From NCBI GenBank assembly GCA_041651115.1, contig JBAZJY010000003.1:3188-67187 (forward strand): DNA of 64,000 nt, written 5' to 3'. Below are positions 5,208-61,093 of this stretch, piece by piece (position 1 is the stretch's first letter; each line of letters begins with the position of its first letter). The notes beneath the pieces were generated by a model. The model made no database searches. It had not been told where the DNA came from and saw only the letters and a program-made list of their open reading frames with translations. Both the position numbers and the translations under genes were made by a program. Source of the DNA: Candidatus Omnitrophota bacterium. Its GTDB lineage: Bacteria; Omnitrophota; Gorgyraeia; Gygaellales; Profunditerraquicolaceae.

Positions 5208-6686
5208 TCAGGTCTTTACCACTGATAATGTTTTTTGCAATCTCTTAAGATCATTATCATTTGCAAGCACCAATAAGACGTCGCCCCCTTCGATTACCGT
5301 AGAGCCGTTCGGGACAATAAAGGTATCTTCGCGTGAAATAATAACGACAAGGGCCTTAGGAGGAATATTGATTGCGGCGATAGATTTTCCGACAACATGC
5401 GAATTATACGGCACGATCATGTCGGTAAGCGAAGCATCAATGGCCTCCGAATATTCAAACTCAATAGGGTATTTCTTCTTTGGGTCAAACGGAGCATTAA
5501 CTTTAAGTATTTTTGATATACCCGGTATAGATGTTCCCTGAAGCAGCACAGAGGTTAAAACAACGAAAAACACTATATTAAATATCGCATGCGCCTGCGC
5601 TATCCCGGCCAGAAGCGGGAATGTCGCTAAAATAATCGGCACAGCGCCACGTAATCCTACCCAGGATATCATTGCCTTTTCCGCAAAATTGAATTTAAAC
5701 GGCAACAGGCATAAGAATACGCTGACCGGCCGCGCAAAAAGAATAAGTATAGCGGCTACCAGCAAACCGCTTACAATGATCGGCACTATCCGGGAAGGGA
5801 AAACAAGCAGGCCCAGCGTCAAAAACATCGCAATCTGCATTAACCAGGCAATCCCTTCATAAAAACGGACGATTGACCGCTTATTGACAAAATCACTCCT
5901 ACTCATCATTAACCCCAGCAGATAAACCGCGAGAAATCCGTTTCCCTTGATTAAAGTAGTAAGGGCGTAGGTAAAAACTACTAAGGCAATGGTCAAAACC
6001 GGGTATAATCCCTCATATTCAAGCTTACTCTTATTAATAAGGAAAATGCTTACCCGGGACATAAAATATCCCATCAACAGCCCGACACCCATATTAAGAA
6101 CAAAAAACGGGATCAAATTCAACACGGGAGAGCCAGGATTAATCAAAAGCCCGATACAGCCGATGGTAAGAAAAACAGCCATCGGGTCATTGCTGCCTGA
6201 TTCAAGCTCCAGGAGAGGCTTTAAGTTACCTTTAAGGGATATTTTCCGTGATCTGAGAACGCTGAAAACCGCCGCGGCATCAGTTGAGGATACAATTGAA
6301 CCAAGCAATAGCCCTTCAAGCAGTGAAAATTTAAGGATCAAAACCGCGGAAAAGCCGACAATTACAGCCGTAATAAGCACTCCGGCAGTTGATAAAATTA
6401 AACCCGGGGCGAGCAGCGGCTTAACGGATTTCCATGGCGTGTCCAAACCTCCGGAATAAATAATAAAGATCAGCGCGACGATACCGATTGATTTTGCGAT
6501 ACCATAATCGTTAAAATATATCCTGCCGATCCCCTCAGAACCTGCCAGCATTCCGATAACAAGAAACAGCAATAAGGCAGGCAGAGCAAACCTATCGGAT
6601 ATTTTACTTGCCAATACGCTGATAAGCGTTAAGACTGCAGCCCACAATATAATTGTTTCCATCGTCATGGTAATCGTTATTCCCAC
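5208..6686 (-). CDS. K+/H+ antiporter, CPA1 family with C-terminal TrkA_C/RCK_C domain (NhaP2/CvrA-like)
   Basis: About 12 TM helices followed by a soluble C-terminal domain (VVGKSIAAINIPPKALVVIISREDTFIVPNGSTVIEGGDVLLVLANDNDL) typical of TrkA_C. Confidence 0.7.
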   Translation of the reverse strand: MGITITMTMETIILWAAVLTLISVLASKISDRFALPALLLFLVIGMLAGSEGIGRIYFNDYGIAKSIGIVALIFIIYSGGLDTPWKSVKPLLAPGLILSTAGVLITAVIVGFSAVLILKFSLLEGLLLGSIVSSTDAAAVFSVLRSRKISLKGNLKPLLELESGSNDPMAVFLTIGCIGLLINPGSPVLNLIPFFVLNMGVGLLMGYFMSRVSIFLINKSKLEYEGLYPVLTIALVVFTYALTTLIKGNGFLAVYLLGLMMSRSDFVNKRSIVRFYEGIAWLMQIAMFLTLGLLVFPSRIVPIIVSGLLVAAILILFARPVSVFLCLLPFKFNFAEKAMISWVGLRGAVPIILATFPLLAGIAQAHAIFNIVFFVVLTSVLLQGTSIPGISKILKVNAPFDPKKKYPIEFEYSEAIDASLTDMIVPYNSHVVGKSIAAINIPPKALVVIISREDTFIVPNGSTVIEGGDVLLVLANDNDLKRLQKTLSVVKT

Positions 6687-7858
6687 ATCTCAAATATGTT
6701 TTTGAAAATTCCCCGTACAGCGCTCCGGGGGCTAGACTTAAATGCGTTCTTAAAACTATTGATCCTTGCCCTTATGAACTTTAATCGTAAAATATAGTCC
6801 GCTCTAACATTTAATACATAATGCCCGCATTTATCACAATCTGTCTTTTCGATCACGGTGCCTGTTTTATGTATGTTTTTAGATATCCTGCGAAACTCTC
6901 TGTACATATCCGAGAACCATATTTTACTGAACTTAGATAAACAGTTATCCCCCATCACCAAACCGGAGCCGCAACACGGAAATACCAAACCTGATGAATC
7001 TATCCTGGTAAATAGCCACCCTATGTAACATGGAGTGCTGATTGTTGTTTTCCCCCCGGCAAGGTCTTTATCTTCCTGATTGCCACAATTAAAATAATGC
7101 GATTTTAAAAGTTCGGGAATTGAATTATTGATAAAGTATTTTGCGGCTAATTTTTCCGCCTCCAAAAGGTCTTTCTGAAGATGCGAATGTTGTTCGCTAT
7201 TTAATCTCAAAGATGAGAGCTCTGAATTTAACCATATCGGGCGGATATTGATATTTTTAACTCCGGTATCAACGGCAAAGCGCACCATATTAGTCGTTTC
7301 CGAATAATTAATATTGTTTATCACGGAATGCAGCGTAATCTTGGCTTTCTTTGATTTAGAAAGGATGGAGATACGCCGTTTCAGCCGGTAAAAATCTTCA
7401 GCGGAATGCCGCGGGTGGACCTTGCACCAAACATCGGGTGTCCCCGCGTGCAAGCTTATCCAGAATCGTACGTTTGGCATAGCTAGTTCATCAATCATCC
7501 CTTCCGTAAGGTGTATGCCGCTTGTTACTAAAATACACTCCATCCCGAGAGAAACAACGAATTTTATCATCTTCCCGATTTCCGGGTTTAGGAGCGGCTC
7601 CCCCTTCCCTACTATCTGTATTTTTTTCGTGCCAAGCATGTGCAATTCCCATGCCAATTTCTTAAAAGTTTCAAAAGAGAGGAATGCCTGGCCATTAGCT
7701 TGGTTGTTCCGGCTTGGGAGCAAGGGAGAAAAATTATAGCATAGCATACAGCCAACGTCACATAGCTCCGAAACCTCAATCTGCGCGCTTCTGGGGCCGC
7801 AGAATGCTGAATTGTTGCTTACCATCCCCATAAATGTTTTTAATTTTGTAAACCGCAT
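6677..7858 (-). CDS. radical SAM / SPASM-domain protein (peptide- or protein-modifying maturase-like)
   Basis: CDVGCMLC (CxxxCxxC) near N-terminus. C-terminal Cys-rich region CYIGW...PCCGSG...CDKCGHY consistent with SPASM auxiliary clusters. No adjacent small precursor ORF seen. Confidence 0.6.
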   Translation of the reverse strand: MRFTKLKTFMGMVSNNSAFCGPRSAQIEVSELCDVGCMLCYNFSPLLPSRNNQANGQAFLSFETFKKLAWELHMLGTKKIQIVGKGEPLLNPEIGKMIKFVVSLGMECILVTSGIHLTEGMIDELAMPNVRFWISLHAGTPDVWCKVHPRHSAEDFYRLKRRISILSKSKKAKITLHSVINNINYSETTNMVRFAVDTGVKNINIRPIWLNSELSSLRLNSEQHSHLQKDLLEAEKLAAKYFINNSIPELLKSHYFNCGNQEDKDLAGGKTTISTPCYIGWLFTRIDSSGLVFPCCGSGLVMGDNCLSKFSKIWFSDMYREFRRISKNIHKTGTVIEKTDCDKCGHYVLNVRADYILRLKFIRARINSFKNAFKSSPRSAVRGIFKNIFEMWE

Positions 7859-14416: not shown

Positions 14417-14446
14417 CGAAGGCTCCTTAAGCGGGTTTTATATAAA

Positions 14447-14488
14447 GAATAACCCCGCACTCAATTTTCTAAAGGAGTGCGGGGTTAT
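14447..14488 (-). terminator. hairpin terminator downstream of the 14514..15191 gene
   Basis: Perfect 15-bp inverted repeat AATAACCCCGCACTC / GAGTGCGGGGTTATT with a 12-nt loop, followed on the minus strand by a T-rich stretch. Confidence 0.5.
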
Positions 14489-14513
14489 TGTGAAGTATCC
14501 TGTAAATATCAAA

Positions 14514-17024: not shown

Positions 17025-17030
17025 AAGTTC

Positions 17031-17125
17031 GTTATTAAGTGGCGGAGAGTGGCCCCGCTTGCGCGGGGCTGCCGTTACTATACGACGCCACTTGTTGCGT
17101 TATTAAGTGGCGGAGAGTGGATTTC
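17031..17125. repeat. two tandem copies (17030-17052 and 17097-17119) of a 23-nt repeat CGTTATTAAGTGGCGGAGAGTGG, each with downstream hairpins. Resemble tRNA 3'-end/att-like fragments.
   Basis: Identical 23-mers at 17030 and 17097. On the minus strand they read ...CCACTCTCCGCCACTTAATAACG, similar to the tRNA 3' end CCTCTCGCCGCCACTAAT at 17200. The CTCCGCC part is complementary to the GGCGGAG 5' end of the partial tRNA at 17388-17426. Confidence 0.5.
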
Positions 17126-17199
17126 CAGCCGCCGTTATTTTAACGTCCGGCGGCGCAGTCCCCTGCTTCTTAGGGGAAAACCACCGGATAACAAATTAG

Positions 17200-17273
17200 T
17201 GGCGGCGAGAGGATTTAAACCTCTGACTTATCGGGTATGAGCCGACTACTCTATCGGGCTGAGTTACGCCGCC
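17200..17273 (-). tRNA. tRNA with CAT anticodon (elongator Met or Ile2/lysidine type). No encoded CCA.
   Basis: Minus strand: GGCGGCG-TA-ACTC-AGCCCGATA-GAGT-A-GTCGG-CTCATAC-CCGAT-AAGTC-AGAGG-TTTAAAT-CCTCT-CGCCGCC-A. It folds as a cloverleaf with a 7/4/5/5 bp stem pattern. The D-loop has GA instead of GG18-19 and the T-loop has U56 instead of C56, an apparent A19-U56 covariation. About 125 nt upstream of tilS in the same orientation. Confidence 0.75.
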
Positions 17274-17387
17274 AAAATCTACTATTATAATCCAGGCGCA
17301 TGTCCTTGCTCGCTTTGCTCGCAAGGATTAATTCGGCCAGCAAACTTATGTTTGCTATCGCTCCACAAGTTTGGGCCTCATTTAAGT

Positions 17388-17426
17388 ATGAGCCGCGTGC
17401 TCTATCAGGCTGAGCTACTCCGCCAA
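17388..17426 (-). pseudogene. tRNA(CAT)-like 5' half fragment (acceptor, D-arm, anticodon stem 5' strand and loop only)
   Basis: Minus strand: GGCGGAG-TA-GCTC-AGCCTGATA-GAGC-A-CGCGG-CTCATAC, then no complementary CCGCG or T-arm. About 80% identical to the 5' half of the intact tRNA 115 nt downstream. Confidence 0.45.
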
Positions 17427-17429
17427 ATT

Positions 17430-24886: not shown

Positions 24887-24929
24887 AATACCTAATTATA
24901 TACCGCGTTAAAGAAAATGCTACAAAAAA

Positions 24930-24975
24930 AAGAGGGGACGTTTCTAAGGAAACGTCCCCTCTTTTTTAAGAGCTT
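24930..24975 (-). terminator. rho-independent terminator after the 533-aa tpsA gene
   Basis: Perfect hairpin AGAGGGGACGTTTC-(loop)-GAAACGTCCCCTCT flanked by an A-tract on one side and a T-tract on the other. On the minus strand it is followed by TTTTTTTT. Confidence 0.65.
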
Positions 24976-24979
24976 AGTT

Positions 24980-30040: not shown

Positions 30041-30117
30041 TAGGGACGGTTCTCAACTCAAAGCTAAAGTGTCCCCCCTACGGGGACACTTTACGATTGG
30101 CTTGAGAACCGTCCCTA
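30041..30117. repeat. ~76-bp nested palindromic intergenic element, copy 1 (REP/MITE-like)
   Basis: TAGGGACGGTTCTCA...GTGTCCCC-CCTAC-GGGGACAC...TGAGAACCGTCCCTA. 15-bp perfect terminal inverted repeats plus an inner 8-bp hairpin. A second copy with identical termini is at 61018-61093. Confidence 0.6.
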
Positions 30118-41642: not shown

Positions 41643-43103
41643 TTATAACTTTGGTTTTTGCAAATGCCACGCCGTGCCTTGTTCATAAGCATGGGCCGCG
41701 CGTAAAATGGCCTCTTCGTTAAAAGGCCTGGCCAAGATCTGCAAGCCGACAGGCAGCCCGGCCTTCGTAAAGCCGCATGGTAGGGATATTGCCGGAATAC
41801 CTGCCAGGTTCACGGATATCGTATAGATATCCGACAAATACATACTTAAAGGGTCTTGCGCCTTCTCCCCGATCTTAAACGCCGGAGTAGGTGAAGTAGG
41901 GGTAATAATACAGTCAAAATCAGCGAACACAGCGTCAAAATCCTGTTTGATCAGAGTCCTCACCTTTAATGCGCGTAAATAGTAAGCATCGTAATAGCCG
42001 TGTGAAAGCGCGAATGTTCCCAAAAGAATCCTGCGTTTTGCCTCTTCGCCAAAACCCTGGCCGCGCGTTCTTTTATACATCTCAATCATGCTCTGGCCAT
42101 GCGCAGCAGTATTTTTGGCGCGATAGCCGTATTGCACGCCGTCAAAACGGGCGAGATTAGAGCTCGCCTCGGCAGTGGCAATAATATAATAAACCGGAAC
42201 AGCATATTCGGTATGGGGCAAAGACACCTGCTTGCAAGAAGCGCCCAAACTTTTTAATTTTTCAACTGCTTCTTCAACAATGCTCCTTACTTCCGGGTCC
42301 ATTCCATCAATAAAATATTCTTTAGGCAATGCGATCTTCATTCCCTTAATATCATTGGTCAGCGATCTTGTGTAATCCGGCACCGGCAGGTCGACAGAAG
42401 TAGAATCGTTTGTATCATGGCCGGAAATAACATTCATTAGCAGCGCCGAATCGCGCACATCTTTGGTGATCGGGCCGATCTGATCAAGGCTTGAGGCAAA
42501 TGCGATCAAGCCGTAACGGGAAACCCTGCCGTATGTCGGCTTCAACCCAACCACTCCGCAGAAGGCTGCCGGTTGGCGGATGGAACCGCCGGTATCAGAG
42601 CCTAATGCCATAATTGCTTCATCCGCGGCAATTGCCGCAGCAGATCCACCGGATGAGCCGCCGGGCACGCGCTCCAAATCCCAGGGGTTGCGCGTGGGGC
42701 CAAAACAGGAATTCTCCGTAGATGAACCAAACGCAAATTCATCCATATTTGCCTTGGCAGCTAAAACTACTGCTCCTGCACTTTTAAGTTTTTTTATGAC
42801 TGTCGCATCATAAGGAGGCTTAAATCCGGCAAGGATCTTTGAGCAGCATTCGGTATTCTGGCCGTCGGTGCAGATATTGTCCTTGATGGTAACGGGGATG
42901 CCGCTTAGGTGATAGGTGTCAGGTGTCAGGTGTTGGGCGTCAGGTGATAGGCCCAAGGGATCAGAAAGCCTGACATAGGCCTTAACCTTAGGATCGGTTT
43001 TTTTAATACATCGTTCTAAATCTGCAATAACATCCCGGGAGGTTATTTCTTTTTTCCCTAATTTCCCTAAAAATTCATGCGCAGTTAATCTATTTAGTTC
43101 CAT
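41643..43103 (-). CDS. gatA: Asp-tRNA(Asn)/Glu-tRNA(Gln) amidotransferase subunit A (amidase signature)
   Basis: [13 protein letters not shown] amidase signature. 486 aa. Contains an in-frame heptamer-repeat-derived insert ([13 protein letters not shown]) at 42908-42952. Confidence 0.9.
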
Positions 43104-43152
43104 TATATTCTTTCTAACCTGACACCTAACACCTAAGACCTAACACCTATCA
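43104..43152. repeat. tandem heptanucleotide repeats (mRNA strand GATAGGT GTTAGGT CTTAGGT GTTAGGT GTCAGGT) filling the gatC-gatA junction
   Basis: Five tandem GTYAGGT units on the minus (mRNA) strand between the gatC stop (43150) and the gatA start (43103). Each unit carries an SD-like AGGT(G). Confidence 0.65.
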
Positions 43153-48465: not shown

Positions 48466-51243
48466 TTAGAACTTGCGGCGGTAATAAAGGCGGAAGATGT
48501 GCTCTGTGTCCAGGGTTTCTACGCTGCTGCCATAAGGATCCCATCCGACGTTAAGCAAACCTCCCTCATAGGGGTTACGGCTTGCTTCGCCGTATTGGAA
48601 AACAAAATTTTCCAATTCCGACTTACGGTACATCAGCTCAATGAACGCGTTGTGATGGCTGTATAATTTTGTGCTGCCGGCGATCAATTTATCAAGGTCC
48701 TGCCAACGGGAATAAATATATTTAAAGAAAATACCTAATTTCGGAGTAGGCGAATAAGAAACCTCCAGGCCGATATGGTTCAAGTTACCGTCTACCTGCC
48801 CTGCTTTTTCATATGAATTGCGCGTATAATCAAGGTAAAACTGCCATTTCTCCGAAGGAGTAAGAGTCAGGCCGGTGCGGAATATATTATAAAAATCATA
48901 GGGCGGCTTTGGAAAAAACTGCTGACTGTAAAGGAACGCGCGCTCTTGCCGGTATTGGTTATCGTATTCGGAAAATGTCGAGCCCATATCCGTACTTGAT
49001 AATATCGACCTTGGAAACCCGTCATAACCAAGGGTATAATCATTGGTATATTCCCAGATGCCGTTTACCGTCATCCAATCATTAAGGGCATATTCAAGCC
49101 CCAGGGAACCGGTTTTTAGCGTAGGATCCAGGCCGTCGGTAATTTCGGAATTGGCATAATACTGCCGCGTCAGCGGATCAAAAAGGAACGGATCAAGGCC
49201 TGCCGTTGTCCTCGGCAGCTTATTATAAATACCTAACATCTTCGTCGTCAATTTTTCGTTTGCCTGCCATGTCAATTCATCCCGCACGACATTCTCAATA
49301 AATTTCCCGTTTGTCCCATGGACATTGCGCACGTCAAAGAGATTATCCACCTGCTTATCCCATAACTGAGATTCTATGCGCAGGCCAATAGTGTTACGGC
49401 CGATATCAATGCCGTTACCGACTTTGCGATTCTTTACATCATCCCAAGTCAATAGTTTGCCTTCCCCCTGGTCTCCTTCATAGAAAAACCGGAACGGCTG
49501 CCGGAAATTCAAGTGCCTTCCCCACCATTCGTCATCGCGCGTTTCCACATAAGAAGACAGGGACTGATCAAAAGACTCATCCATGCGGGATACGAAGAAC
49601 CGGAATTTGTTAAAGAAGCGGTCTTTCTCATCCGGCTGTATTCCGTCATAACCATATTTAGTGTTAATAACGCTGGCAAAGGGAAATCTTCCGATAAGCG
49701 AAAAATAGTACGCATTGCCGCCTTTTTCGGATTTGAATTGGTCGTCGCTCAAGTCATAGTATGATTTTGATGCGGCAACTTCTGCGCTGGCCATGATGCC
49801 GTTAATCGGCTCATAGTTTATGTCTCCGCCGGCAACGTAATTCTTTGCATCGGTCCGGTACTCTTTCTCCGTCTCAAATCCTAAGCGGGCGGTATAAGTG
49901 GCGCCGATATTAAGGCTATCCCAGATTCGGTGTTTTAGCCGCGTAGCGGAAATAATATTATCTGCATCCGAATAATCCTGCCAAAGGTCCTTTGGGGTCG
50001 CAAAATTGGAAACTATGGACGTCCCTTCCCACGGGGTCAGCTGAAGATCCAAACCCCGCAGTCCGGTCAGGCGTTGGCCCTCGCTGTCGCGCGTATAAAA
50101 AGAAAGTGTATTGTCCCAGTAGCCCCTGGTGAAATCAACCGGCGTAAGCCCGGAATTCCTTCTGCCCGGAGTCCACCTGCGTATCCACGGGCTGTCTTCC
50201 CACCACTGCCGGTTATTGGACAGCCTTAAAGGATCGTCAAACGTCGAAGCCTGGTTCTCGTAGGCAAGCGGATAAAATTTGGCGCTAAAAATATCGCTAT
50301 TATAACCAGCCCATAATTCGCGTACCGGCTGGAATTGATAATAGATTTTCGTTGCGGGAATGGTAAAACTGTCGGAAACAGGAATAGTATAATCACCGGC
50401 CTTGGTAAACGCGTCTGTACGTCCGTCTTTAACTTTTATTTCGGGGAGGTTAAATGAATTACCCAGGCTGGTTGTATAGGCTTTCTCATTAATCGTATAA
50501 CCCGTATTGGACCAATATTTTAATTCTACTTCGGCGGTATCGCCAAATGCGCTGGAGACAGTGGTCTTAGCGCTCTTACCAGTAAAGCTCCAGGGATCGA
50601 CGACCACATTACTATAAAAACTAAGGCCTTCTTCGTTATTTCCTTTTTCCAGCTTTACCGCCATACGGTCGTATATCCGCGGATCGTATGTATTTTCCTT
50701 ATTATCGAAAGCAGAATCTGAATTCCTGCGGTAATTACGCTCATTCAAATCCCAGTTCGCCCTCTTCCATACGGCATCGCCGGAATCCATACCAACCCTT
50801 ATCTGCGCTTCTCCGGTAACCTTTACGCCGGCGATCTCTAAAGCTTCGTCAACTGCCTCATCTTTGGCAGCGGGCTTAACAACGGGAGCTGCCGGTTTAG
50901 CTTGAGCCTTGGGAGCCTCTTTATAATTATTCAACGCCTGTTCCATAGCGTCGTATTTATCGGCTTTGAATTGCGCGGGAACTGCTTCCAGCTGCTGCGC
51001 AGGTTCAGATGATGCGGAAAAAATATCGTTTATGTATCTTAAAGCAGTCTTATTGGAAGAGTCTAGACTAAGCGCTTTTTTAAACTCGGTAAGCGCGTCA
51101 TCGTATCTTCCTTGACGGTAGAATTGAATGCCTAATTCGCAGAGATATTCTACCGTAGCGGGGGCACTATGGGCGGGCTCGATACAGATAAAACCTGATA
51201 TCCAAATTACTACTAAAGCTAGGGAAAATAATTTCTTGAGCAT
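48466..51243 (-). CDS. large outer-membrane beta-barrel protein with N-terminal TPR module (BcsC/PgaA-like exopolysaccharide export porin architecture)
   Basis: Signal peptide. N-terminal TPR-like helices (YLCELGIQFYRQGRYDDALTEFKKALSLD). Long region of alternating amphipathic beta-strands ending ...HIFRLYYRRKF (terminal Phe). Converges stop-to-stop (1 nt gap) with the plus-strand gene. Confidence 0.5.
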   Translation of the reverse strand: MLKKLFSLALVVIWISGFICIEPAHSAPATVEYLCELGIQFYRQGRYDDALTEFKKALSLDSSNKTALRYINDIFSASSEPAQQLEAVPAQFKADKYDAMEQALNNYKEAPKAQAKPAAPVVKPAAKDEAVDEALEIAGVKVTGEAQIRVGMDSGDAVWKRANWDLNERNYRRNSDSAFDNKENTYDPRIYDRMAVKLEKGNNEEGLSFYSNVVVDPWSFTGKSAKTTVSSAFGDTAEVELKYWSNTGYTINEKAYTTSLGNSFNLPEIKVKDGRTDAFTKAGDYTIPVSDSFTIPATKIYYQFQPVRELWAGYNSDIFSAKFYPLAYENQASTFDDPLRLSNNRQWWEDSPWIRRWTPGRRNSGLTPVDFTRGYWDNTLSFYTRDSEGQRLTGLRGLDLQLTPWEGTSIVSNFATPKDLWQDYSDADNIISATRLKHRIWDSLNIGATYTARLGFETEKEYRTDAKNYVAGGDINYEPINGIMASAEVAASKSYYDLSDDQFKSEKGGNAYYFSLIGRFPFASVINTKYGYDGIQPDEKDRFFNKFRFFVSRMDESFDQSLSSYVETRDDEWWGRHLNFRQPFRFFYEGDQGEGKLLTWDDVKNRKVGNGIDIGRNTIGLRIESQLWDKQVDNLFDVRNVHGTNGKFIENVVRDELTWQANEKLTTKMLGIYNKLPRTTAGLDPFLFDPLTRQYYANSEITDGLDPTLKTGSLGLEYALNDWMTVNGIWEYTNDYTLGYDGFPRSILSSTDMGSTFSEYDNQYRQERAFLYSQQFFPKPPYDFYNIFRTGLTLTPSEKWQFYLDYTRNSYEKAGQVDGNLNHIGLEVSYSPTPKLGIFFKYIYSRWQDLDKLIAGSTKLYSHHNAFIELMYRKSELENFVFQYGEASRNPYEGGLLNVGWDPYGSSVETLDTEHIFRLYYRRKF

Positions 51244-51285
51244 ATTTGCTATATATTATAGCGGCTGCTCCAATATGTCAAGAAA

Positions 51286-51335
51286 AAAATAGGGACAGAG
51301 ACTACTTTTCCGTACGAAAAGTAGTCTCTGTCCCT
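51286..51335 (-). terminator. rho-independent terminator
   Basis: 19-bp perfect hairpin AGGGACAGAGACTACTTTT-CCGTACG-AAAAGTAGTCTCTGTCCCT. Flanked by an A-run upstream and a T-run downstream, so it could terminate in both directions. Lies after the 51345..51677 ORF. Confidence 0.65.
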
Positions 51336-51344
51336 ATTTTTATT

Positions 51345-51677
51345 CTATTTTATCAGCCCTTGCTGCGCTGCGAAAAGGCTGATCTTAAGCGAATGCACAA
51401 AAAGTATAAGGAACAACTTGCCGTTACTGACTGCGCAGACGCTCCCTTTTATCTTACAAAAAAACTTCTCTTTCTGCTCCCGGCTGTTATGCTCTTTTAC
51501 CACATGTACATATGGCTGAGGCCGCGAAACATCGGAGTCCGGGATCTCTTTTACCATGCACACAAAGTGCCGGTTAATCACGCTGCGCACACCTTCCCTG
51601 TCTACGACCTCAGAGCTGGTGATGATCTTGCGCCGCTTGTCATCCGAAGTTAAATTTTTGAATAATAGATTTCTCAC
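51345..51677 (-). CDS. hypothetical small protein (110 aa)
   Basis: ORF on the dominant coding strand followed by a strong terminator. Mixed charged composition. No motif recognised. The overlapping plus-strand ORF 51246..51653 has unprotein-like composition. Confidence 0.35.
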   Translation of the reverse strand: MRNLLFKNLTSDDKRRKIITSSEVVDREGVRSVINRHFVCMVKEIPDSDVSRPQPYVHVVKEHNSREQKEKFFCKIKGSVCAVSNGKLFLILFVHSLKISLFAAQQGLIK

Positions 51678-52964: not shown

Positions 52965-53566
52965 TTTATTATCCTTACCCTTTGCGGCGGCCAATATACT
53001 ACCATTGCCTGCCCCAGGATATTCTCCGCCGGAACAAACCCCCAATAACGGCTGTCTTGCGAAGAAGCAGAGTTATCACCCAAAACAAAATAGCTGTCCT
53101 TCGGGACAGCGATCTTTACCCCTTCCGGCGCGAAATCACCCCGGTTATAGTAATACCTCTGGCTAAAGCCATAATCAATAAGCGGATGGTTATTGATATA
53201 TATGGTGCCGTTCTTGATCTCAACCGTATCTCCGGGCAAACCCACCAGCCGTTTTATGAAATCTTTTTTCGGGTCGTCAGGATAAATAAAAACTACGATA
53301 TCCCCTCTTTTCGGTATGCGTACTTTCGGTATCCTGAAGTTGATAAAAGGTACCTTTGCCCCGTAAATGAATTTATTGACCAGGATAATATCTCCCTCTA
53401 AAAGCGTCGGCCGCATTGAACCGGTGGGTATCTTAAAAGCCTGCACTACGAACGTGCGGATGAACATCGCCAAAATAAAAGCGATAAGAATAGACTCTGC
53501 CCATTCACGGACAACCGATTTCTTTTTTATGCCTGCGCTTTCATGCCCTGTAGCTTTGTCGCTCAT
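52961..53566 (-). CDS. lepB: signal peptidase I (S26)
   Basis: SMRPTLLEGDIILVNK (catalytic Ser box) and GDNSASSQDSRYWGFVPAENILGQA (box E). Confidence 0.85.
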   Translation of the reverse strand: MSDKATGHESAGIKKKSVVREWAESILIAFILAMFIRTFVVQAFKIPTGSMRPTLLEGDIILVNKFIYGAKVPFINFRIPKVRIPKRGDIVVFIYPDDPKKDFIKRLVGLPGDTVEIKNGTIYINNHPLIDYGFSQRYYYNRGDFAPEGVKIAVPKDSYFVLGDNSASSQDSRYWGFVPAENILGQAMVVYWPPQRVRIIK

Positions 53567-55359
53567 ATTTTTAATACCTCCAAAAATGCCTCTTGCGGGA
53601 TTTCTACCCTGCCGAATTGCTTAAGCCGCTTCTTGCCTTCCTTCTGCTTATCCCAAAGTTTACGTTTACGGGTGATATCCCCGCCGTAGCATTTGCTGGT
53701 TACTGCCTTTGCCAGCGCCCGGATCTTCTGCGAAGCAATAATCTGGCTGCCTACCGCTGCCTGGATCACAACTTCAAATACCTGCCGCGGGATCAACTCT
53801 CTAAGCTTGTCAACTAAGGCATGCGCCTTATGCGCAGCCTTATCCTTATGCATTAAAGAAGAAAACGCGTCGCAAACAATGCCGTTTAAAAGAATATCCA
53901 GTTTTACCAGCTTAGTCGGCAGATAATCGCTGAATTCATAATCAATAGAACCGTAGCCCTTGGTCAGTGATTTCATCCGGTCATAAAAATCCACGATGAT
54001 CTCCGAAAGCGGGATCTCAAATACCACCTTCACCCTATCCTCTCCCAGATAATCGCTGGAACGGAATGTCCCCCGCCGCGATTTAGCCAGTTCGCATACC
54101 AGGTCAATGGTATCCACGGGAATGATCATCAATAAATTCACATAAGGCTCATACGCCTCTAAAACGTCCTGCGGCGAGAATTTTGCCGGGGTATCTACCT
54201 CAATGACCGCGCCGTCCCTGCCTTTTACTTTATAGACTACATTCGGGACAGTAAGTATCAAATTTAAATTATATTCCCGCTCTAATCGTTCCTGCACGAT
54301 CTCCATATGCAAAAGGCCTAAGAATCCGCAGCGGAAACCAAAACCGAATGACTGTGAATTTTCCGGCTCAAATACGAACGAGGCGTCGGATAATTTCAGC
54401 TTATCCATTGCCTCGCGCAGGTCGGGAAAATCCGCGGCATTCACCGGATAGATGCCGCAGAAAACCAAAGGCTTAAGGATTTTGTAACCGGGTAGAACAC
54501 CGTCGCAAGGATTGCGGTTATCGGCGATCGTGTCGCCGATGATGATCTCGCGCGCGTCGCGGATATTGGCGGTAAAATAACCTACTTCGCCTGCGGTCAA
54601 ACTGCCGACTTTCGTATATTTGAGGTTTGCCAGAACGCCCAATTCTTCGATTTTATAAATCGTCCCGGAATGCATCATTTTAAGCGGGGTATTCGGCATA
54701 ACTTCTCCGTCCACTACCCTGACAAAAACTACCACTCCCTTAAAAGGATCATAACGGCAGTCAAAAACCAGCGCCTTCAAAGGCCGGCTGTTCTCCCCTG
54801 CCGGTTCAGGCACCACCTCAATGATCCGCTCTAAGATATCTTCAATGCCGATGCCTTCTTTGGCGGAAGCAAGAATAATCTCTTCTTCCTCAAACCCCAG
54901 GACAGTATTGATCTGCCGTTTTACACGCGGCAGATCAATGGCAGTCAAGTCGATCTTATTGATCACCGGGATTATTTTCAGGTTATTTTCCCGCGCCAGA
55001 TAATAATTCGCCACTGTCTGCGCTTCAATACCCTGGCCTGCATCCACGACCAGCACCGCGGCTTCGCAGGCAGCTAAAGATTTAGAAACTTCGTAAGTAA
55101 AATCTACGTGGCCGGGGGTATCAATGAGGTTCAGGATATAATCTTTACCGGTTTTTTTAGAACGATAGGCAAGCCTGACCATTGAGGCCTTAATGGTAAT
55201 GCCGCGCTCTCGCTCAAGGTCCATATCGTCTAAAAGCTGGGCGCGCGACGTCCGCTTATCTACCGCCCCGGTCAATTCAAGGATACGGTCGGCAAGTGTA
55301 GATTTGCCGTGGTCTATATGGGCGATTATTGAAAAATTACGGATCAAAGATTTATCCAT
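53563..55359 (-). CDS. lepA: translation elongation factor 4 (LepA/EF4)
   Basis: IRNFSIIAHIDHGKSTLADRIL G-domain plus the LepA-specific C-terminal domain. 598 aa. No SD visible upstream of the ATG. Confidence 0.9.
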   Translation of the reverse strand: MDKSLIRNFSIIAHIDHGKSTLADRILELTGAVDKRTSRAQLLDDMDLERERGITIKASMVRLAYRSKKTGKDYILNLIDTPGHVDFTYEVSKSLAACEAAVLVVDAGQGIEAQTVANYYLARENNLKIIPVINKIDLTAIDLPRVKRQINTVLGFEEEEIILASAKEGIGIEDILERIIEVVPEPAGENSRPLKALVFDCRYDPFKGVVVFVRVVDGEVMPNTPLKMMHSGTIYKIEELGVLANLKYTKVGSLTAGEVGYFTANIRDAREIIIGDTIADNRNPCDGVLPGYKILKPLVFCGIYPVNAADFPDLREAMDKLKLSDASFVFEPENSQSFGFGFRCGFLGLLHMEIVQERLEREYNLNLILTVPNVVYKVKGRDGAVIEVDTPAKFSPQDVLEAYEPYVNLLMIIPVDTIDLVCELAKSRRGTFRSSDYLGEDRVKVVFEIPLSEIIVDFYDRMKSLTKGYGSIDYEFSDYLPTKLVKLDILLNGIVCDAFSSLMHKDKAAHKAHALVDKLRELIPRQVFEVVIQAAVGSQIIASQKIRALAKAVTSKCYGGDITRKRKLWDKQKEGKKRLKQFGRVEIPQEAFLEVLKI

Positions 55360-55360
55360 A

Positions 55361-55500
55361 TGGTAATTTTAGGTTAAGTTATTAGGTTAAGGTTAAGAGG
55401 CCAGTATGGTAAATAGGTTAGGGTTAAGTATCAATGGCCTAAACTTAACCCTTAAACCATACCGGCTTCCTGCCCCTAACCCTAACCATAACCTACAGAT
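55361..55500. repeat. ~135-nt imperfect inverted repeat built from telomere-like heptamers (GGTTAAG/GGTTAGG ... CCCTAACC) between cmk and lepA
   Basis: Left arm GGTTAAGTTATTAGGTTAAGGTTAAG...GGTTAGGGTTAAGT. Right arm ACTTAACCCTTAAACC...CCCTAACCCTAACC is its approximate reverse complement. Immediately adjacent to the lepA start codon. Confidence 0.55.
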
Positions 55501-56146
55501 ATCCCGAAAGTGCTTTCACAACTTCTTCTATACTCATTTCCGTCGTATCTATGTAAATTGCGTCGTCTGCTTTCTTAAGCGGCGAATGCGAGCGCGTTGA
55601 ATCGATCGTGTCGCGGTTACACAGGTCAGCCTGAACGTCTTCTAAGGTAACGGCCTGGCCTGCGGCAATAAGTTCCTTATGCCGCCTTACTGCCCGCTCC
55701 TCAAACTGCGCGTCCACATAAAATTTCCTGTCTGCTGCGGGAAAAACCACGGTCCCGATATCGCGGCCGTCAAGCACGCTGTCTTTATAGGCCCCCAGCC
55801 GCCTTTGCAGCTTAACAAGGATCTCCCGCACTTCTTTTATCTTGGCTACGTCAGAAACAACGGCAGTAACCCGCGGCTCTCTGATCTCCTGCGAAACGTC
55901 GCGGCCGTCTAAAAATACTTTTAGCGGGCCTGCGCCGGGGTCATTTACCAGGTCGATATCGCTGGCTGATGCCATTTTCACTACCGCGGCAGCATCTTTA
56001 ATGTCAATCCCGGATTCAATCGCCTTTAATGCCAGGGCGCGGTACATTGCCCCGGTGTCAATATAAAGAAAGCCCAGTTTCTGGGCCAATAATTTCGCGA
56101 CTGTGCTCTTGCCCGCGCCTGCCGGGCCGTCAATGGCAATGATCAC
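55493..56146 (-). CDS. cmk: cytidylate kinase
   Basis: IIAIDGPAGAGKSTVAKLLAQKLGFLYIDTGAMYRA is the canonical Cmk N-terminus. Confidence 0.85.
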   Translation of the reverse strand: MIIAIDGPAGAGKSTVAKLLAQKLGFLYIDTGAMYRALALKAIESGIDIKDAAAVVKMASASDIDLVNDPGAGPLKVFLDGRDVSQEIREPRVTAVVSDVAKIKEVREILVKLQRRLGAYKDSVLDGRDIGTVVFPAADRKFYVDAQFEERAVRRHKELIAAGQAVTLEDVQADLCNRDTIDSTRSHSPLKKADDAIYIDTTEMSIEEVVKALSGYL

Positions 56147-58266: not shown

Positions 58267-59358
58267 TTATGAAATTTTCTTTAACGCCTCCACGAACTTC
58301 CGGTTTTCCTTTTTTGTACCGATGGTTACGCGGATAAAATTCTTTAAGCCGTATTGTTTCATGTCCCTGACAATCACTCCGCGCTTAAGCAGGTCCTTGA
58401 ATACAGCCGAGCCGTCCCTGCCTGTATCAACCAGTATAAAATTGGCTACTGACGGTACAAAGGCAAGCCCCATTTTCTTCAACTCCTCATAAAGGTAATT
58501 CTTACCTTCCAGTACTGCCCTGCGCGATTTCTGCAGGAATTTTTTATCGTCAAGGGCCGCTGCGGCAGCAGCCTGGGCCAAGCTATTCACGTTAAACGGC
58601 TGGCGCGCTTTTTCCATTGCCTGGATCAATTCCTGCTTGGCAACGGCATAACCAACGCGCAAGCCCGCAAGGCCGTAAACCTTAGAGAACGTCTTCAGAA
58701 TAATCACATTCCCGCCGCCAATGTGGCTGATGCTTGAAGGAAAATCATTCACGTCAATGAAAGTCTCATAAGCCTCATCAAGCACGAGTAAAACATCGTC
58801 CGGCAGGCTCTTAAGGAATTCCTGCACTTCATGGCGCGTAATATAGGTACCGGTCGGGTTATTGGGATTGGCGATAAATATTGTCTTTGTTTTCCTGTCA
58901 ATCTTTTTCCTGATCGCTTCAAGGTCAAATTTAAAATATTTCAGCGGCGCGGTGACCACCTTGCGGTTATTTACCTTGGCAATGATCGCGTATTCAAGGA
59001 ACGTGGTATCGGCGGTAACAATGTTCTCATCTTCCTCAACAAAGGTCTTGATGATAATATCGATGATCTCATCCGAGCCGTTACCCAGAAGGATATTTGC
59101 CGGTTTAAGGTTAAGGCAGCGCGCCAGCTTCTTCTTCAGGTAAAATCCTCCGGAATCCGGATAGCGGTTGATCTTACCGAGGCTTTTCCTTATTGCCTCG
59201 ATCGCCTTAGGGGGCGCCCCAAGCGGATTTTCATTAGAAGCAAGCTTGATCACGTCCTTAAGGCCGAACTCGCGCTTTGTCTCTTCAATCGGCTTTCCCG
59301 CGATATACGGAGTTATCTCAGCTATATTTTTTCTTACCAGATCTTTCATCATAATCAC
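58267..59358 (-). CDS. hisC: histidinol-phosphate/aromatic aminotransferase (class II PLP aminotransferase)
   Basis: KLASNENPLGAPPKA...YPD N-terminal motif. PLP-lysine region (TFSKVYGLAGLRVGY). GTG start at 59358 or ATG at 59352/59349. Confidence 0.75.
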   Translation of the reverse strand: MIMMKDLVRKNIAEITPYIAGKPIEETKREFGLKDVIKLASNENPLGAPPKAIEAIRKSLGKINRYPDSGGFYLKKKLARCLNLKPANILLGNGSDEIIDIIIKTFVEEDENIVTADTTFLEYAIIAKVNNRKVVTAPLKYFKFDLEAIRKKIDRKTKTIFIANPNNPTGTYITRHEVQEFLKSLPDDVLLVLDEAYETFIDVNDFPSSISHIGGGNVIILKTFSKVYGLAGLRVGYAVAKQELIQAMEKARQPFNVNSLAQAAAAAALDDKKFLQKSRRAVLEGKNYLYEELKKMGLAFVPSVANFILVDTGRDGSAVFKDLLKRGVIVRDMKQYGLKNFIRVTIGTKKENRKFVEALKKIS

Positions 59359-59386
59359 CTAATGCCTATCACCTAACACCTAATTA
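59355..59386. repeat. tandem heptanucleotide repeats (mRNA strand TTAGGTG TTAGGTG ATAGGCA TTAGGTG AT) at the pheA-hisC junction
   Basis: Same GTYAGGT family as at the gatC-gatA junction. Gives AGGTGAT SD-like motifs 4-8 nt before the hisC start codons. Confidence 0.65.
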
Positions 59387-61017: not shown

Positions 61018-61093
61018 TAGGGACGGTTCTCAGACCAAGGGAAAAGTGTCCCCATTCGGGGACATTTTTCTCCTTGGCCGAGAACCGTCCCTA
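61018..61093. repeat. ~76-bp nested palindromic intergenic element, copy 2
   Basis: TAGGGACGGTTCTCA...GTGTCCCC-ATTC-GGGGACAT...GAGAACCGTCCCTA. Fills the gap between the ruvA stop (61091) and the scpB start (61010). Termini identical to copy 1 at 30041-30117. Confidence 0.6.

Follow-up and report, generated by a model that had tools for sequence, protein, structure and literature searches.

The housekeeping genes cmk (cytidylate kinase) and lepA (elongation factor 4, EF4) of an uncultured Candidatus Omnitrophota bacterium are separated, in a 64-kb stretch of its DNA (here called the window), by an imperfect palindrome of GGTTARG-type units, which is the subject of this work. This element is a lineage-specific short-unit repeat insertion that is palindromic, unconserved, and not temperature-responsive in silico, that is no terminator, and that belongs to no known RNA family. 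With moderate confidence, we favor the reading that it is a young quasi-palindromic simple-sequence insert, specific to its lineage and made within an ancestrally 3-5-nt junction between the cmk stop and the lepA start, rather than a conserved lepA switch. A first-pass annotation of the window had described the inverted repeat and proposed, among other roles, that it serves as a translational switch or thermosensor for EF4. The observation is confirmed, the regulatory reading is unsupported, and the interest of the element comes mainly from a class-level pattern and not from lepA regulation.

The cmk-lepA Junction in Related Genomes

In the closest relatives, the site is empty. In the contigs L081, L082, and P0004 (the P0004 contigs being compared by gene table only), cmk and lepA overlap by 16 nt (ATGGATAAATCGCTGA), and the lepA start context ATGGATAAATC is unchanged; LepA of L081 is 93.6% identical to that of the window. 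The element is likewise absent from L203 (LepA 78% identical), where the spacer is 5 nt and the Cmk C-terminus, KALQGYL*, has the same form as in the window, from L002 (59% identical; 8-nt overlap), and from L003 (59% identical; 17-nt spacer). When 130 nt (a segment of 125 nt plus one TATGG; 55361-55490, minus strand) are removed from the window, the remaining ...CTG TAG GT TATGG ATAAATC aligns with ...TAA TAG T TATGG ATAAAAC of L203, an alignment that also included other relatives. Since the window's Cmk ends in KALSGYL*, the common Omnitrophota form, the insert begins at or after the native cmk stop. The first-pass annotation had itself named absence from the lepA leaders of close relatives, with an unchanged start context, as the finding that would speak against a switch, and this is the situation in L081, L082, and P0004. 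We conclude that the hairpin is a recent insertion in the window's lineage.

A search of related lepA leaders, which had also been suggested, showed that close relatives lack a homologous structure and that distant ones carry unrelated repeats. In L001 (LepA 77% identical), the junction holds a 150-nt hairpin of (GTGTAAT)n/(ATTACAC)n (z = -5.9), whose first unit provides the cmk stop and which has TATG at both edges. In L204, (AAGTCACC)4 lies opposite (GGTGAC/TGTGAC)3, and the cmk reading frame runs through; L205 (86% identical) has direct arrays, (AGAGCACA)3 (AAACTTG)2; and in L207 and L208, decayed repeat versions persist as Cmk tails. The hairpins at this junction have no alignable sequence in common between genomes, and among close relatives presence and copy number vary, with junctions ranging from a 16-nt overlap to a 150-nt spacer and with differing units. 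On this comparison, we conclude that the cmk-lepA junction has repeatedly acquired unrelated short-unit repeats.

Such insertions seem often to be absorbed into the cmk reading frame, since several Cmk C-terminal tails read as translated short repeats. Among the Omnitrophota, 17 of 120 Cmk homologues have at least 223 aa versus the usual 216-220 (P0015, P0016, P0028, P0053, P0089, P0090, P0099, P0102, and others), and several of the long tails, 6-15 residues in length, are short-unit DNA repeats translated in three frames, e.g., SHQVTKSP, encoded by (AGTCACCA)3, and GHKVTRSPD. The tails KSPECCL (P0019, P0046) and KSPSHQVTKSPDSCL (P0028) suggest one unit versus four, a comparison of unit number made on protein tails, with the DNA read for P0028 alone.

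The absence of a purine-rich Shine-Dalgarno (SD) sequence, which the first-pass annotation had pointed out, is borne out by the lack of any SD-like or purine-rich motif in the 30 nt upstream of lepA. An obvious SD is missing from about half of the genes in the window, so an SD-less lepA is not unusual in this genome. Because none of the relative genomes compared has an SD before lepA either, the SD-less start is ancestral and predates the insert, the hairpin not being its cause. It goes with cmk and lepA cistrons that originally overlapped or abutted.

Locus and Anatomy of the Element

The top LepA match in GTDB genomes is an Omnitrophota metagenome-assembled genome (77% identity), and an identical Cmk (P0001, 100% identity; Pfam Cytidylate_kin) is encoded on a 357-kb JGI/NCBI contig annotated as Omnitrophota. 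The minus strand carries almost all genes of the window, including cmk (55493-56146), whose C-terminus is the same as in the relatives P0031 and P0043, and lepA (53563-55359), which starts at an ATG at 55357-55359. The stop codon of cmk, TAG at 55493-55495, forms the first three bases of the 5' arm of the hairpin, and the element takes up all of the 133-nt spacer (55360-55492); it is probably transcribed within a cmk-lepA mRNA. Two observations fix the lepA start: an in-frame TAA is located 12 nt upstream of the ATG, and the conserved LepA N-terminus agrees with homologues; in the other assembly, the start is annotated at a TTG 12 nt downstream. An assembly artefact was considered and rejected as unlikely because the element has exactly the same sequence in an independent ENA assembly (L206, 198-kb contig).

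The inverted repeat had been described as a left arm of GGTTAAG/GGTTAGG units and a C-rich right arm around a center of about 13 nt, and the repeat searches and the fold agree that it is real. On the plus strand, GGTTAAG/GGTTAGG units occur in the left arm and CCCTAACCCTAACC in the right arm; the repeat search gives arms of 42 nt (55385-55426 and 55440-55481) that are 71% complementary and 13 nt apart, with outer arms extending to 55364-55495. The G-rich arm does come first on the mRNA, as was noted: the 5' arm (GUAGGUUAUGGUUAGGGUUAGGGGCAGGAAGCCGGUAUGGUUUAAGGGUUAAGUUUA; 55440-55495, minus strand) begins at the cmk UAG and is followed by the 13-nt center, which forms the apical loop region (55427-55439, minus), and by the C-rich 3' arm of CUUAACC and CCUAACC units (55370-55426, minus).

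Tandem Repeats Finder reports period-6 arrays in both arms, at 55371-55397 (4.3 copies) and 55474-55493 (3.3 copies), both degenerate with 72-92% matches. The units are a mixture of 6 and 7 nt with a 31-nt higher-order repeat. Alignment resolves the element into four modules of about 25 nt with the consensus TATGGT, 2-4 A/T, and AGGTTARGGTTARG, two per strand and head-to-head around the center; the short spacers between them are likewise complementary. On the plus strand lie module 1 (outer, TATGGTAATTTTAGGTTAAGTTATTAGGTTAAGGTTAAG plus spacer; 55359-55404) and, as a direct repeat at a spacing of 31 nt, module 2 (inner, TATGGTAAATAGGTTAGGGTTAAG; 55405-55436), and on the minus strand module 3 (inner, GTATGGTTTAAGGGTTAAGTTTAGG; 55434-55462) and module 4 (outer, TATGGTTAGGGTTAGGGGCAGGAAGCCG; 55463-55490).

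Both arm ends (TATGG and CCATA) reproduce the target sequence. The left TATGG of the direct repeat (55486-55490, minus) is probably a relic of the original lepA start region (TAG GT TATGG; compare TAG T TATGG ATAAA in L203), and the right copy (55356-55360, minus), as the L203 alignment also indicates, holds the working lepA ATG. From the left ATG copy, a putative relic upstream open reading frame (ORF) of 14 codons, MVRVRGRKPVWFKG* (55445-55489, minus), runs through the 5' arm and stops near the apex.

Predicted Fold and Structural Alternatives

The mRNA strand is predicted to form a single stem-loop with 51 pairs and an energy of -60 to -62 kcal/mol, against -40 +/- 4 kcal/mol for dinucleotide shuffles (z = -5.2; 0 of 200 as good); the DNA fold has -24.8 kcal/mol (z = -3.6). 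The element is among the six or so most stable 136-nt folds of the window, the remaining ones being terminators, RNase P, a tRNA region, and another palindromic repeat. The C-rich arm had been said to end 2 nt before the ATG, which holds for the repeat text; the predicted stem itself, whose first base pairs are at the cmk UAG, stops 10 nt short of the lepA AUG. Both the minimum free energy (MFE) and the centroid structures leave these 10 nt and the AUG out of the stem, and the A/U-rich start region is partly paired, with a computed probability of about 0.4 at 37 °C.

In RNA thermometers of the ROSE and fourU types, the SD or AUG is buried in a weak stem that melts at 30-42 °C. An element of this kind, or another translational switch occluding or exposing the lepA start, would be consistent with a very strong structure directly upstream of an SD-less start, and the last CCAUA before the AUG could in principle pair with the UAUGG of the 5' end. 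Like ROSE and fourU, the element is a stem-loop in a gene leader; unlike them, it has a predicted energy of -60 kcal/mol, far beyond that of such weak stems, it does not reach the AUG or the last 10 nt of the leader, and no SD is present for it to mask. Folding at several temperatures, as had been recommended, gave mean pairing probabilities for the stem of 0.79, 0.78, and 0.69 at 4, 37, and 75 °C, respectively; the stem is thus predicted to stay folded over the whole range. Neither pairing of the SD or AUG, nor melting at physiological temperature, nor conservation in orthologue leaders was found, the closest relatives having the same start context without the element. We consider a thermometer or switch very improbable.

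The first-pass annotation had also raised a termination element between cmk and lepA. Under this explanation, which we regard as highly unlikely, the cmk transcript would end at the hairpin, acting as an intrinsic terminator or attenuator, and lepA would have its own promoter. There is a long stem-loop at the cmk end, and a weak sigma-70-like match (TTGATA-17-TACCAT, 9/12) lies in the loop and 3' arm; however, the stem is followed by AAAAUUACCAU with no U-run, terminator-like sites in 55200-55700 number 0, and the single promoter-like match is no more than shuffles give (0.6 +/- 0.8). The genuine terminators of the window, at 14417-14513, 24887-24979, and 51290-51345, are GC-rich stems with T-runs. 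The last of these is a perfect 23-bp hairpin between A-runs and T-runs near the junction of the genes at 48466-51243 (minus) and 51246-51653 (plus), and it resembles a bidirectional intrinsic terminator.

It is extremely unlikely that the G-rich arm acts as a G-quadruplex (G4) on DNA or mRNA, in the manner of the GGGNATC heptamers of Xanthomonas and Nostoc. Although G-rich heptamer repeats near ORF ends form G4 in vitro (PMC4692102) and GGUUAUGGUUAGGGUUAGGGGCAGG has five G-runs, only GGG and GGGG reach at least 3 G and the others are GG, so that the arm has no four consecutive tracts of at least 3 G and a weak two-tetrad G4 would be the most to expect. In addition, the complementary C-rich arm is 13 nt away, and its -60 kcal/mol duplex would out-compete a G4, while the hairpins of relatives at this junction (GTGTAAT, AAGTCACC) are not G-rich. 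The label telomere-like is apt as a resemblance only, the TTAGGG-type units occurring two to three times inside a 357-kb contig between two conserved genes; a telomere or linear-replicon end was rejected on the same grounds. In a metagenome DNA scan with TAGGTTARGGTTAAG, the best contexts among the matches listed were mostly eukaryote-type telomere-like or plant-like, and the source contig was not among them.

Rfam 15 gave no gathering-score match at the locus, where sub-threshold miRNA-precursor-like hairpins only were reported, and the gathering-score matches in the window were RNase P and one tRNA. A small RNA, a tRNA-like molecule, and a retron-like element were each rejected, as they found no Rfam or ARAGORN support.

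Proposed Origin

The insert may have originated by two processes acting together, slippage of 6-7-nt units in replication and template switching within the molecule (quasipalindrome 'correction'), a route that would leave the 5-nt TATGG duplication and copy the target into both arm ends. The excess of heptanucleotide simple sequence repeats (SSRs) in bacteria is ascribed to slippage (PMC4679880, citing Mrazek 2007). In template-switch mutagenesis, one arm of an imperfect inverted repeat is copied onto the other, which renders quasipalindromes more perfect (PMC7202029). Such copying would explain why the arms stay complementary under unit drift and why their ends copy the target; what is documented, in E. 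coli reporters, is its part in point and short-patch changes and not the making of 100-nt repeat hairpins (PMC7202029). On the RNA, the insert would loop itself out, and the cmk stop and the lepA start would come to lie about 10 nt apart at the stem base. The self-folded insert is probably tolerated because stop and start are kept close in this way and because the stem does not extend into the A/U-rich start region. Effects that the insert might have on the coupling of cmk and lepA, on mRNA stability, or on cleavage by RNase III would be by-products and not a conserved regulatory design.

According to another explanation, the element is a small non-autonomous mobile element, a hairpin resembling MITEs, REPs, or PATEs, that entered the start region of lepA by transposition and duplicated the target TATGG. 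The 5-nt direct repeat flanking the 125-nt insert fits this and is also expected from microhomology-mediated copying; in addition, there are inverted termini, TATGGTTA and TATGGTAA, the two-in-two modules could be one copy nested in the loop of another, and the window contains a genuine dispersed palindromic family, GGGACGGTTCTC...GAGAACCGTCCC, in two copies. Nevertheless, the termini copy the target (CCATA/TATGG), a pattern better explained by fold-back copying than by the end of a transposon, the interior of low-complexity tandem units does not resemble that of known MITEs, and relatives have different sequences at the same site instead of the same element. No second copy occurs in the 64 kb, where GGTTARGGTTA with at most one mismatch clusters only at the cmk-lepA locus and the module TATGGT..GGTTARGGTTARG does not recur; neither multiple copies nor terminal inverted repeats distinct from the target, both characteristic of MITEs, were found in the window. 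Membership in the GGGACGGTTCTC... family was rejected, there being no sequence similarity. Altogether, we regard a transposed mobile element as improbable.

Among the earlier proposals, another insertion of the heptamer family came closest to the evidence. The element is a lineage-specific short-repeat insertion, but its GGTTARG unit (period 6-7) is distinct from that of the window's TNAGGTG heptamer family (mRNA sense), which occurs at four sites, beginning at 2071, 42905, 43117, and 59356. Recurrence of one unit at many loci is thus a property of the separate TNAGGTG family and not, within the window, of GGTTARG.

Repeat Hairpins at Other Junctions

The insert would be one instance of a wider habit, in which junctions in the Omnitrophota clade (and also in Acidobacteriota) gain 6-8-nt arrays, often as inverted pairs, with a unit that differs by locus and lineage. 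In a census taken on the loci gathered in this analysis, the density of 6-9-nt arrays is 25 per 100 kb in Omnitrophota loci versus 10 per 100 kb in 77 loci of other phyla, and an inverted partner lies within 350 nt of 17 of the 30 Omnitrophota arrays, versus 14 of 54 in other phyla. At operon junctions of Omnitrophota, repeat hairpins are thus frequent and evolve fast. Our literature search for tandem or heptamer repeats in this phylum yielded no report.

In the acidobacterial locus L029 (2930-2995), the ATG of an SD-less lepA is preceded, at a distance of 6 nt, by a hairpin built from (GAGTGAC)n and (GTCACTC)n (-49.8 kcal/mol, z = -9.7); UCUUUU follows this hairpin, hence it is terminator-like. 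Hairpins with heptamer or octamer arms were also seen near lepA in Acidobacteriota and other non-Omnitrophota (L022:1207-1287, L027:6415-6494, L033:851-952, L068:5374-5451), and in the acidobacterial L012 (2796-2936), about 140 nt of arrays, (AATCCCG)13 then (CGAGCCG)6, lie 65 nt upstream of lepA. The nearest GTDB relative, L001, has at 6495-6740, in non-coding DNA, octamers (GGTATCAG)n opposite inverted (CTGATACC/CTGATATC)n, adjoined by GTGTCCTT-type arrays. Further Omnitrophota junction hairpins of short units were recorded at L003:5392-5613, L205:457-523, 2390-2500, and 5009-5107, and L210:2979-3036; examples among these are (AAAGACC)12 versus (GTCTTTG)4, (TGTTTAA)4 versus (TTTAATG)4, a hairpin of GTGTCAW units in a tyrA-cmk spacer, and a pair in a gatA-gatB spacer.

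Paired arrays are also found around the start of gatA. In the window, a heptamer array, (UNAGGUG)5 (43117-43152, minus), fills the gatC-gatA spacer as the 5' arm of a long-range pair, whose 3' arm is a complementary array, (CACCUNA)n (42905-42951, minus), inside gatA at about codons 51-66. The two are 86% complementary over 36 nt and 171 nt apart, and they are predicted to pair around the gatA start (z = -6.8). In two further Omnitrophota genomes, the corresponding arrays have entirely different units, (GTTATGA)n opposite (AACTCAT)n in L209 (782-839, 998-1030; z = -1.4) and (AAGCTNT)4 opposite (ACAGCTT)4 in L210 (1467-1494, 1659-1689; z = -0.9); both folds contain the long-range stem, with weak z-scores. 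The GatA linker is hypervariable with a 7-residue periodicity (13.5% identity at offset 7 versus 6-9% elsewhere; 113 homologues). The paired gatC-gatA arrays seem to co-vary between genomes, which hints at a selected role.

Possible Selection on the Hairpin

The principal alternative to the favored insertion is that the hairpin is a selected intercistronic RNA device managing the SD-less downstream lepA. Such a device could hold stop and start together for re-initiation (structure-bridged translational coupling), offer a candidate RNase III processing site on the 51-bp stem, or, by analogy with REP elements in E. coli operons, act as a barrier to 3'-exonucleases that would uncouple cmk and lepA mRNA levels. 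We consider it unlikely on balance, albeit worth serious consideration. The exact placement of the stem, from the UAG to 10 nt before the AUG, would suit it; however, an insert growing in a 3-5-nt spacer necessarily fills the stop-to-start interval, and this geometry is therefore no evidence of design. Moreover, the closest relatives have the same lepA start without any hairpin.

A second line of evidence concerns strand preference. The sense and antisense folds have, respectively, -60.1 and -46.6 kcal/mol in the window, -44.6 and -61.1 in L001, and -29.8 and -36.7 in L204. The preference in L001 and L204 is thus opposite to that in the window, and since the folds show no consistent direction across the three loci, selection on the sense RNA is argued against. 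The asymmetry was rejected as a test of RNA-level selection because its direction varies between loci.

Several points nevertheless weigh against a neutral insertion by slippage and template switching. Taken alone, the window's element has the more stable sense strand, by 13.5 kcal/mol and with 7 G-U pairs, as RNA-level selection predicts for that locus. Recurrent hairpins of unrelated sequence at the cmk-lepA junction in several lineages (L001 and L204, with L029 having one before lepA) could reflect selection for a structured spacer, and so could the co-varying paired arrays around the gatA start, where a spacer array and a complementary in-gatA array about 170 nt downstream, with three unit sequences in three genomes, namely UNAGGUG/CACCUNA, GUUAUGA/UCAUAAC, and AAGCUNU/ACAGCUU, amount to whole-arm covariation. 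Here it has to be considered that the long-range gatA stems of L209 and L210 are in the MFE structures with z-scores of only -1.4 and -0.9, and that arm-to-arm template switching preserves complementarity without selection (PMC7202029). Furthermore, the mechanism of origin is deduced solely from the anatomy of the element, a flanking 5-nt direct repeat is equally expected of a target-site duplication in transposition, and the search for copies covered 64 kb of the genome only.

A broader form of the selection argument takes paired inverted 6-8-nt arrays for a selected, undescribed post-transcriptional module of Omnitrophota and some Acidobacteriota, in which the stem would bridge or enclose the stop and start of coupled SD-poor genes and whole-arm covariation would keep the pairing during unit turnover. 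The loci that fit this picture are the cmk-lepA hairpins, with three unrelated units, and the gatC-gatA stems, again with three unrelated units and with one arm within the gatA frame. If it were true, the role of the lepA hairpin would be to gate re-initiation at the SD-less AUG or to preserve it. We assign this module a low probability.

Relation to Known Repeat Systems and Significance

Closest in kind among known systems are the long SSRs of bacteria, with units of 5-11 nt (mostly heptanucleotides) and including the cyanobacterial STRR (PMC4679880 and PMC4692102, after Mrazek et al. 2007 and Mazel et al. 1990), together with the TAACTGA heptamers. The element resembles them in its tandem 6-8-nt units, mostly non-coding position, sporadic and lineage-specific occurrence, and copy number differing among relatives; its degenerate period-6 arrays have head-to-tail units in at least 3 copies, slippage is the explanation given for both, and the window contains a classic dispersed heptamer, TNAGGTG, at four loci. 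It differs in that its arrays are inverted pairs giving a long hairpin, in its degenerate units, and in its restriction to one locus in 64 kb.

The TAACTGA heptamers are known from marine Beggiatoaceae and some Cyanobacteria and Bacteroidetes (MacGregor 2015, PMC4679880). Like the arrays described here, they fill spacers and end a few nt before start codons, with a canonical SD being rare, and some overlap an upstream ORF at its end or sit inside ORFs. In the Beggiatoaceae genome BOGUAY, however, TAACTGA is one conserved genome-wide heptamer, of which 169 of 170 sets are direct and 1 of 170 is inverted, with no predicted structure (PMC4679880), whereas in Omnitrophota the unit changes between loci and arrays with an inverted partner prevail (17 of 30). 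The G-rich GGGNATC repeats, too, consist of a single genome-wide unit in direct arrays (PMC4692102), unlike the locus- and lineage-specific inverted pairs found here.

By analogy, the REP/BIME elements of enterobacteria may be regarded as the nearest functional counterpart of an intercistronic hairpin. The element shares with them an imperfect extragenic palindrome between cistrons of one operon and a stable stem-loop in the transcript. In enterobacteria, REP/BIME stabilise upstream mRNA, and REPs form families of 20-40 nt with conserved sequence and hundreds of copies, mobilised by RAYT transposases. The cmk-lepA element, in contrast, is 125 nt long, low in complexity, and unique, no dispersed copies having been found in the 64-kb window, and relatives have unrelated sequences instead; it lacks both the conserved sequence and the high copy number. 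Dominant inverted pairs that form long hairpins, with a unit specific to locus and lineage, set these arrays apart from the known repeats.

For annotation, this means that the element is neither a riboswitch nor a thermometer of lepA and should not be passed on as one. It is a clean, dated case, the site being empty in a relative with 94% LepA identity, and indicates that short-unit repeats can build a 125-nt hairpin in a 3-5-nt junction while leaving an essential-gene operon unbroken, in a phylum without a cultured model. If the arrays are selected, they would represent a new way of organising translational coupling, as the gatC-gatA covariation hints. If they are not, they would be a natural record of slippage and template-switch mutagenesis and a caution for RNA-structure screens based on fold stability only.

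Other Features of the Window

Two further members of the TNAGGTG family lie away from gatA. A 25-nt spacer of (UUAGGUG)-type heptamers (59356-59383, minus) precedes the next gene start and consists of four heptamers, UUAGGUG UUAGGUG AUAGGCA UUAGGUG, the last of which gives AGGUGAU, serving as an SD before an ATG at about 59352; the ORF listed there begins at a GTG inside the repeat. The array at 2071-2102 has a period of 14 nt (ACCTGTCGCCTGAC x 2.3, 100% matches; heptamer family ACCTGNC) and is located inside a MiaB-like radical-SAM methylthiotransferase gene (1303-2445, minus), where its translation, KVSGDRCQATGKS, falls between the N-terminal domain and the radical-SAM domain. Within 500 nt, this array has no inverted partner.

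The palindromic family mentioned above is represented by two copies of about 72 nt, at 30043-30115 and 61020-61091, with the ends GGGACGGTTCTC...GAGAACCGTCCC and the core GTGTCCCC...GGGGACAC. Each copy is situated at a junction between genes, and a fold of -54 kcal/mol over 80 nt is predicted for the second. The two form a genuine dispersed family resembling REP or MITE elements, with no sequence relationship to the lepA hairpin.

Finally, the spacer at 17025-17429 contains a tRNA-Met (17199-17273) and a second tRNA-like 5' half (GGCGGAGTAGCTCAGCCTGATAGAGCACGCGGCTCATAC), as well as two tRNA-like 3' ends, each followed by the same flank (CCACTCTCCGCCACTTAATAACG). Rfam gave no intron match in this spacer, which could hold an interrupted or duplicated tRNA-Met or att-like remnants.

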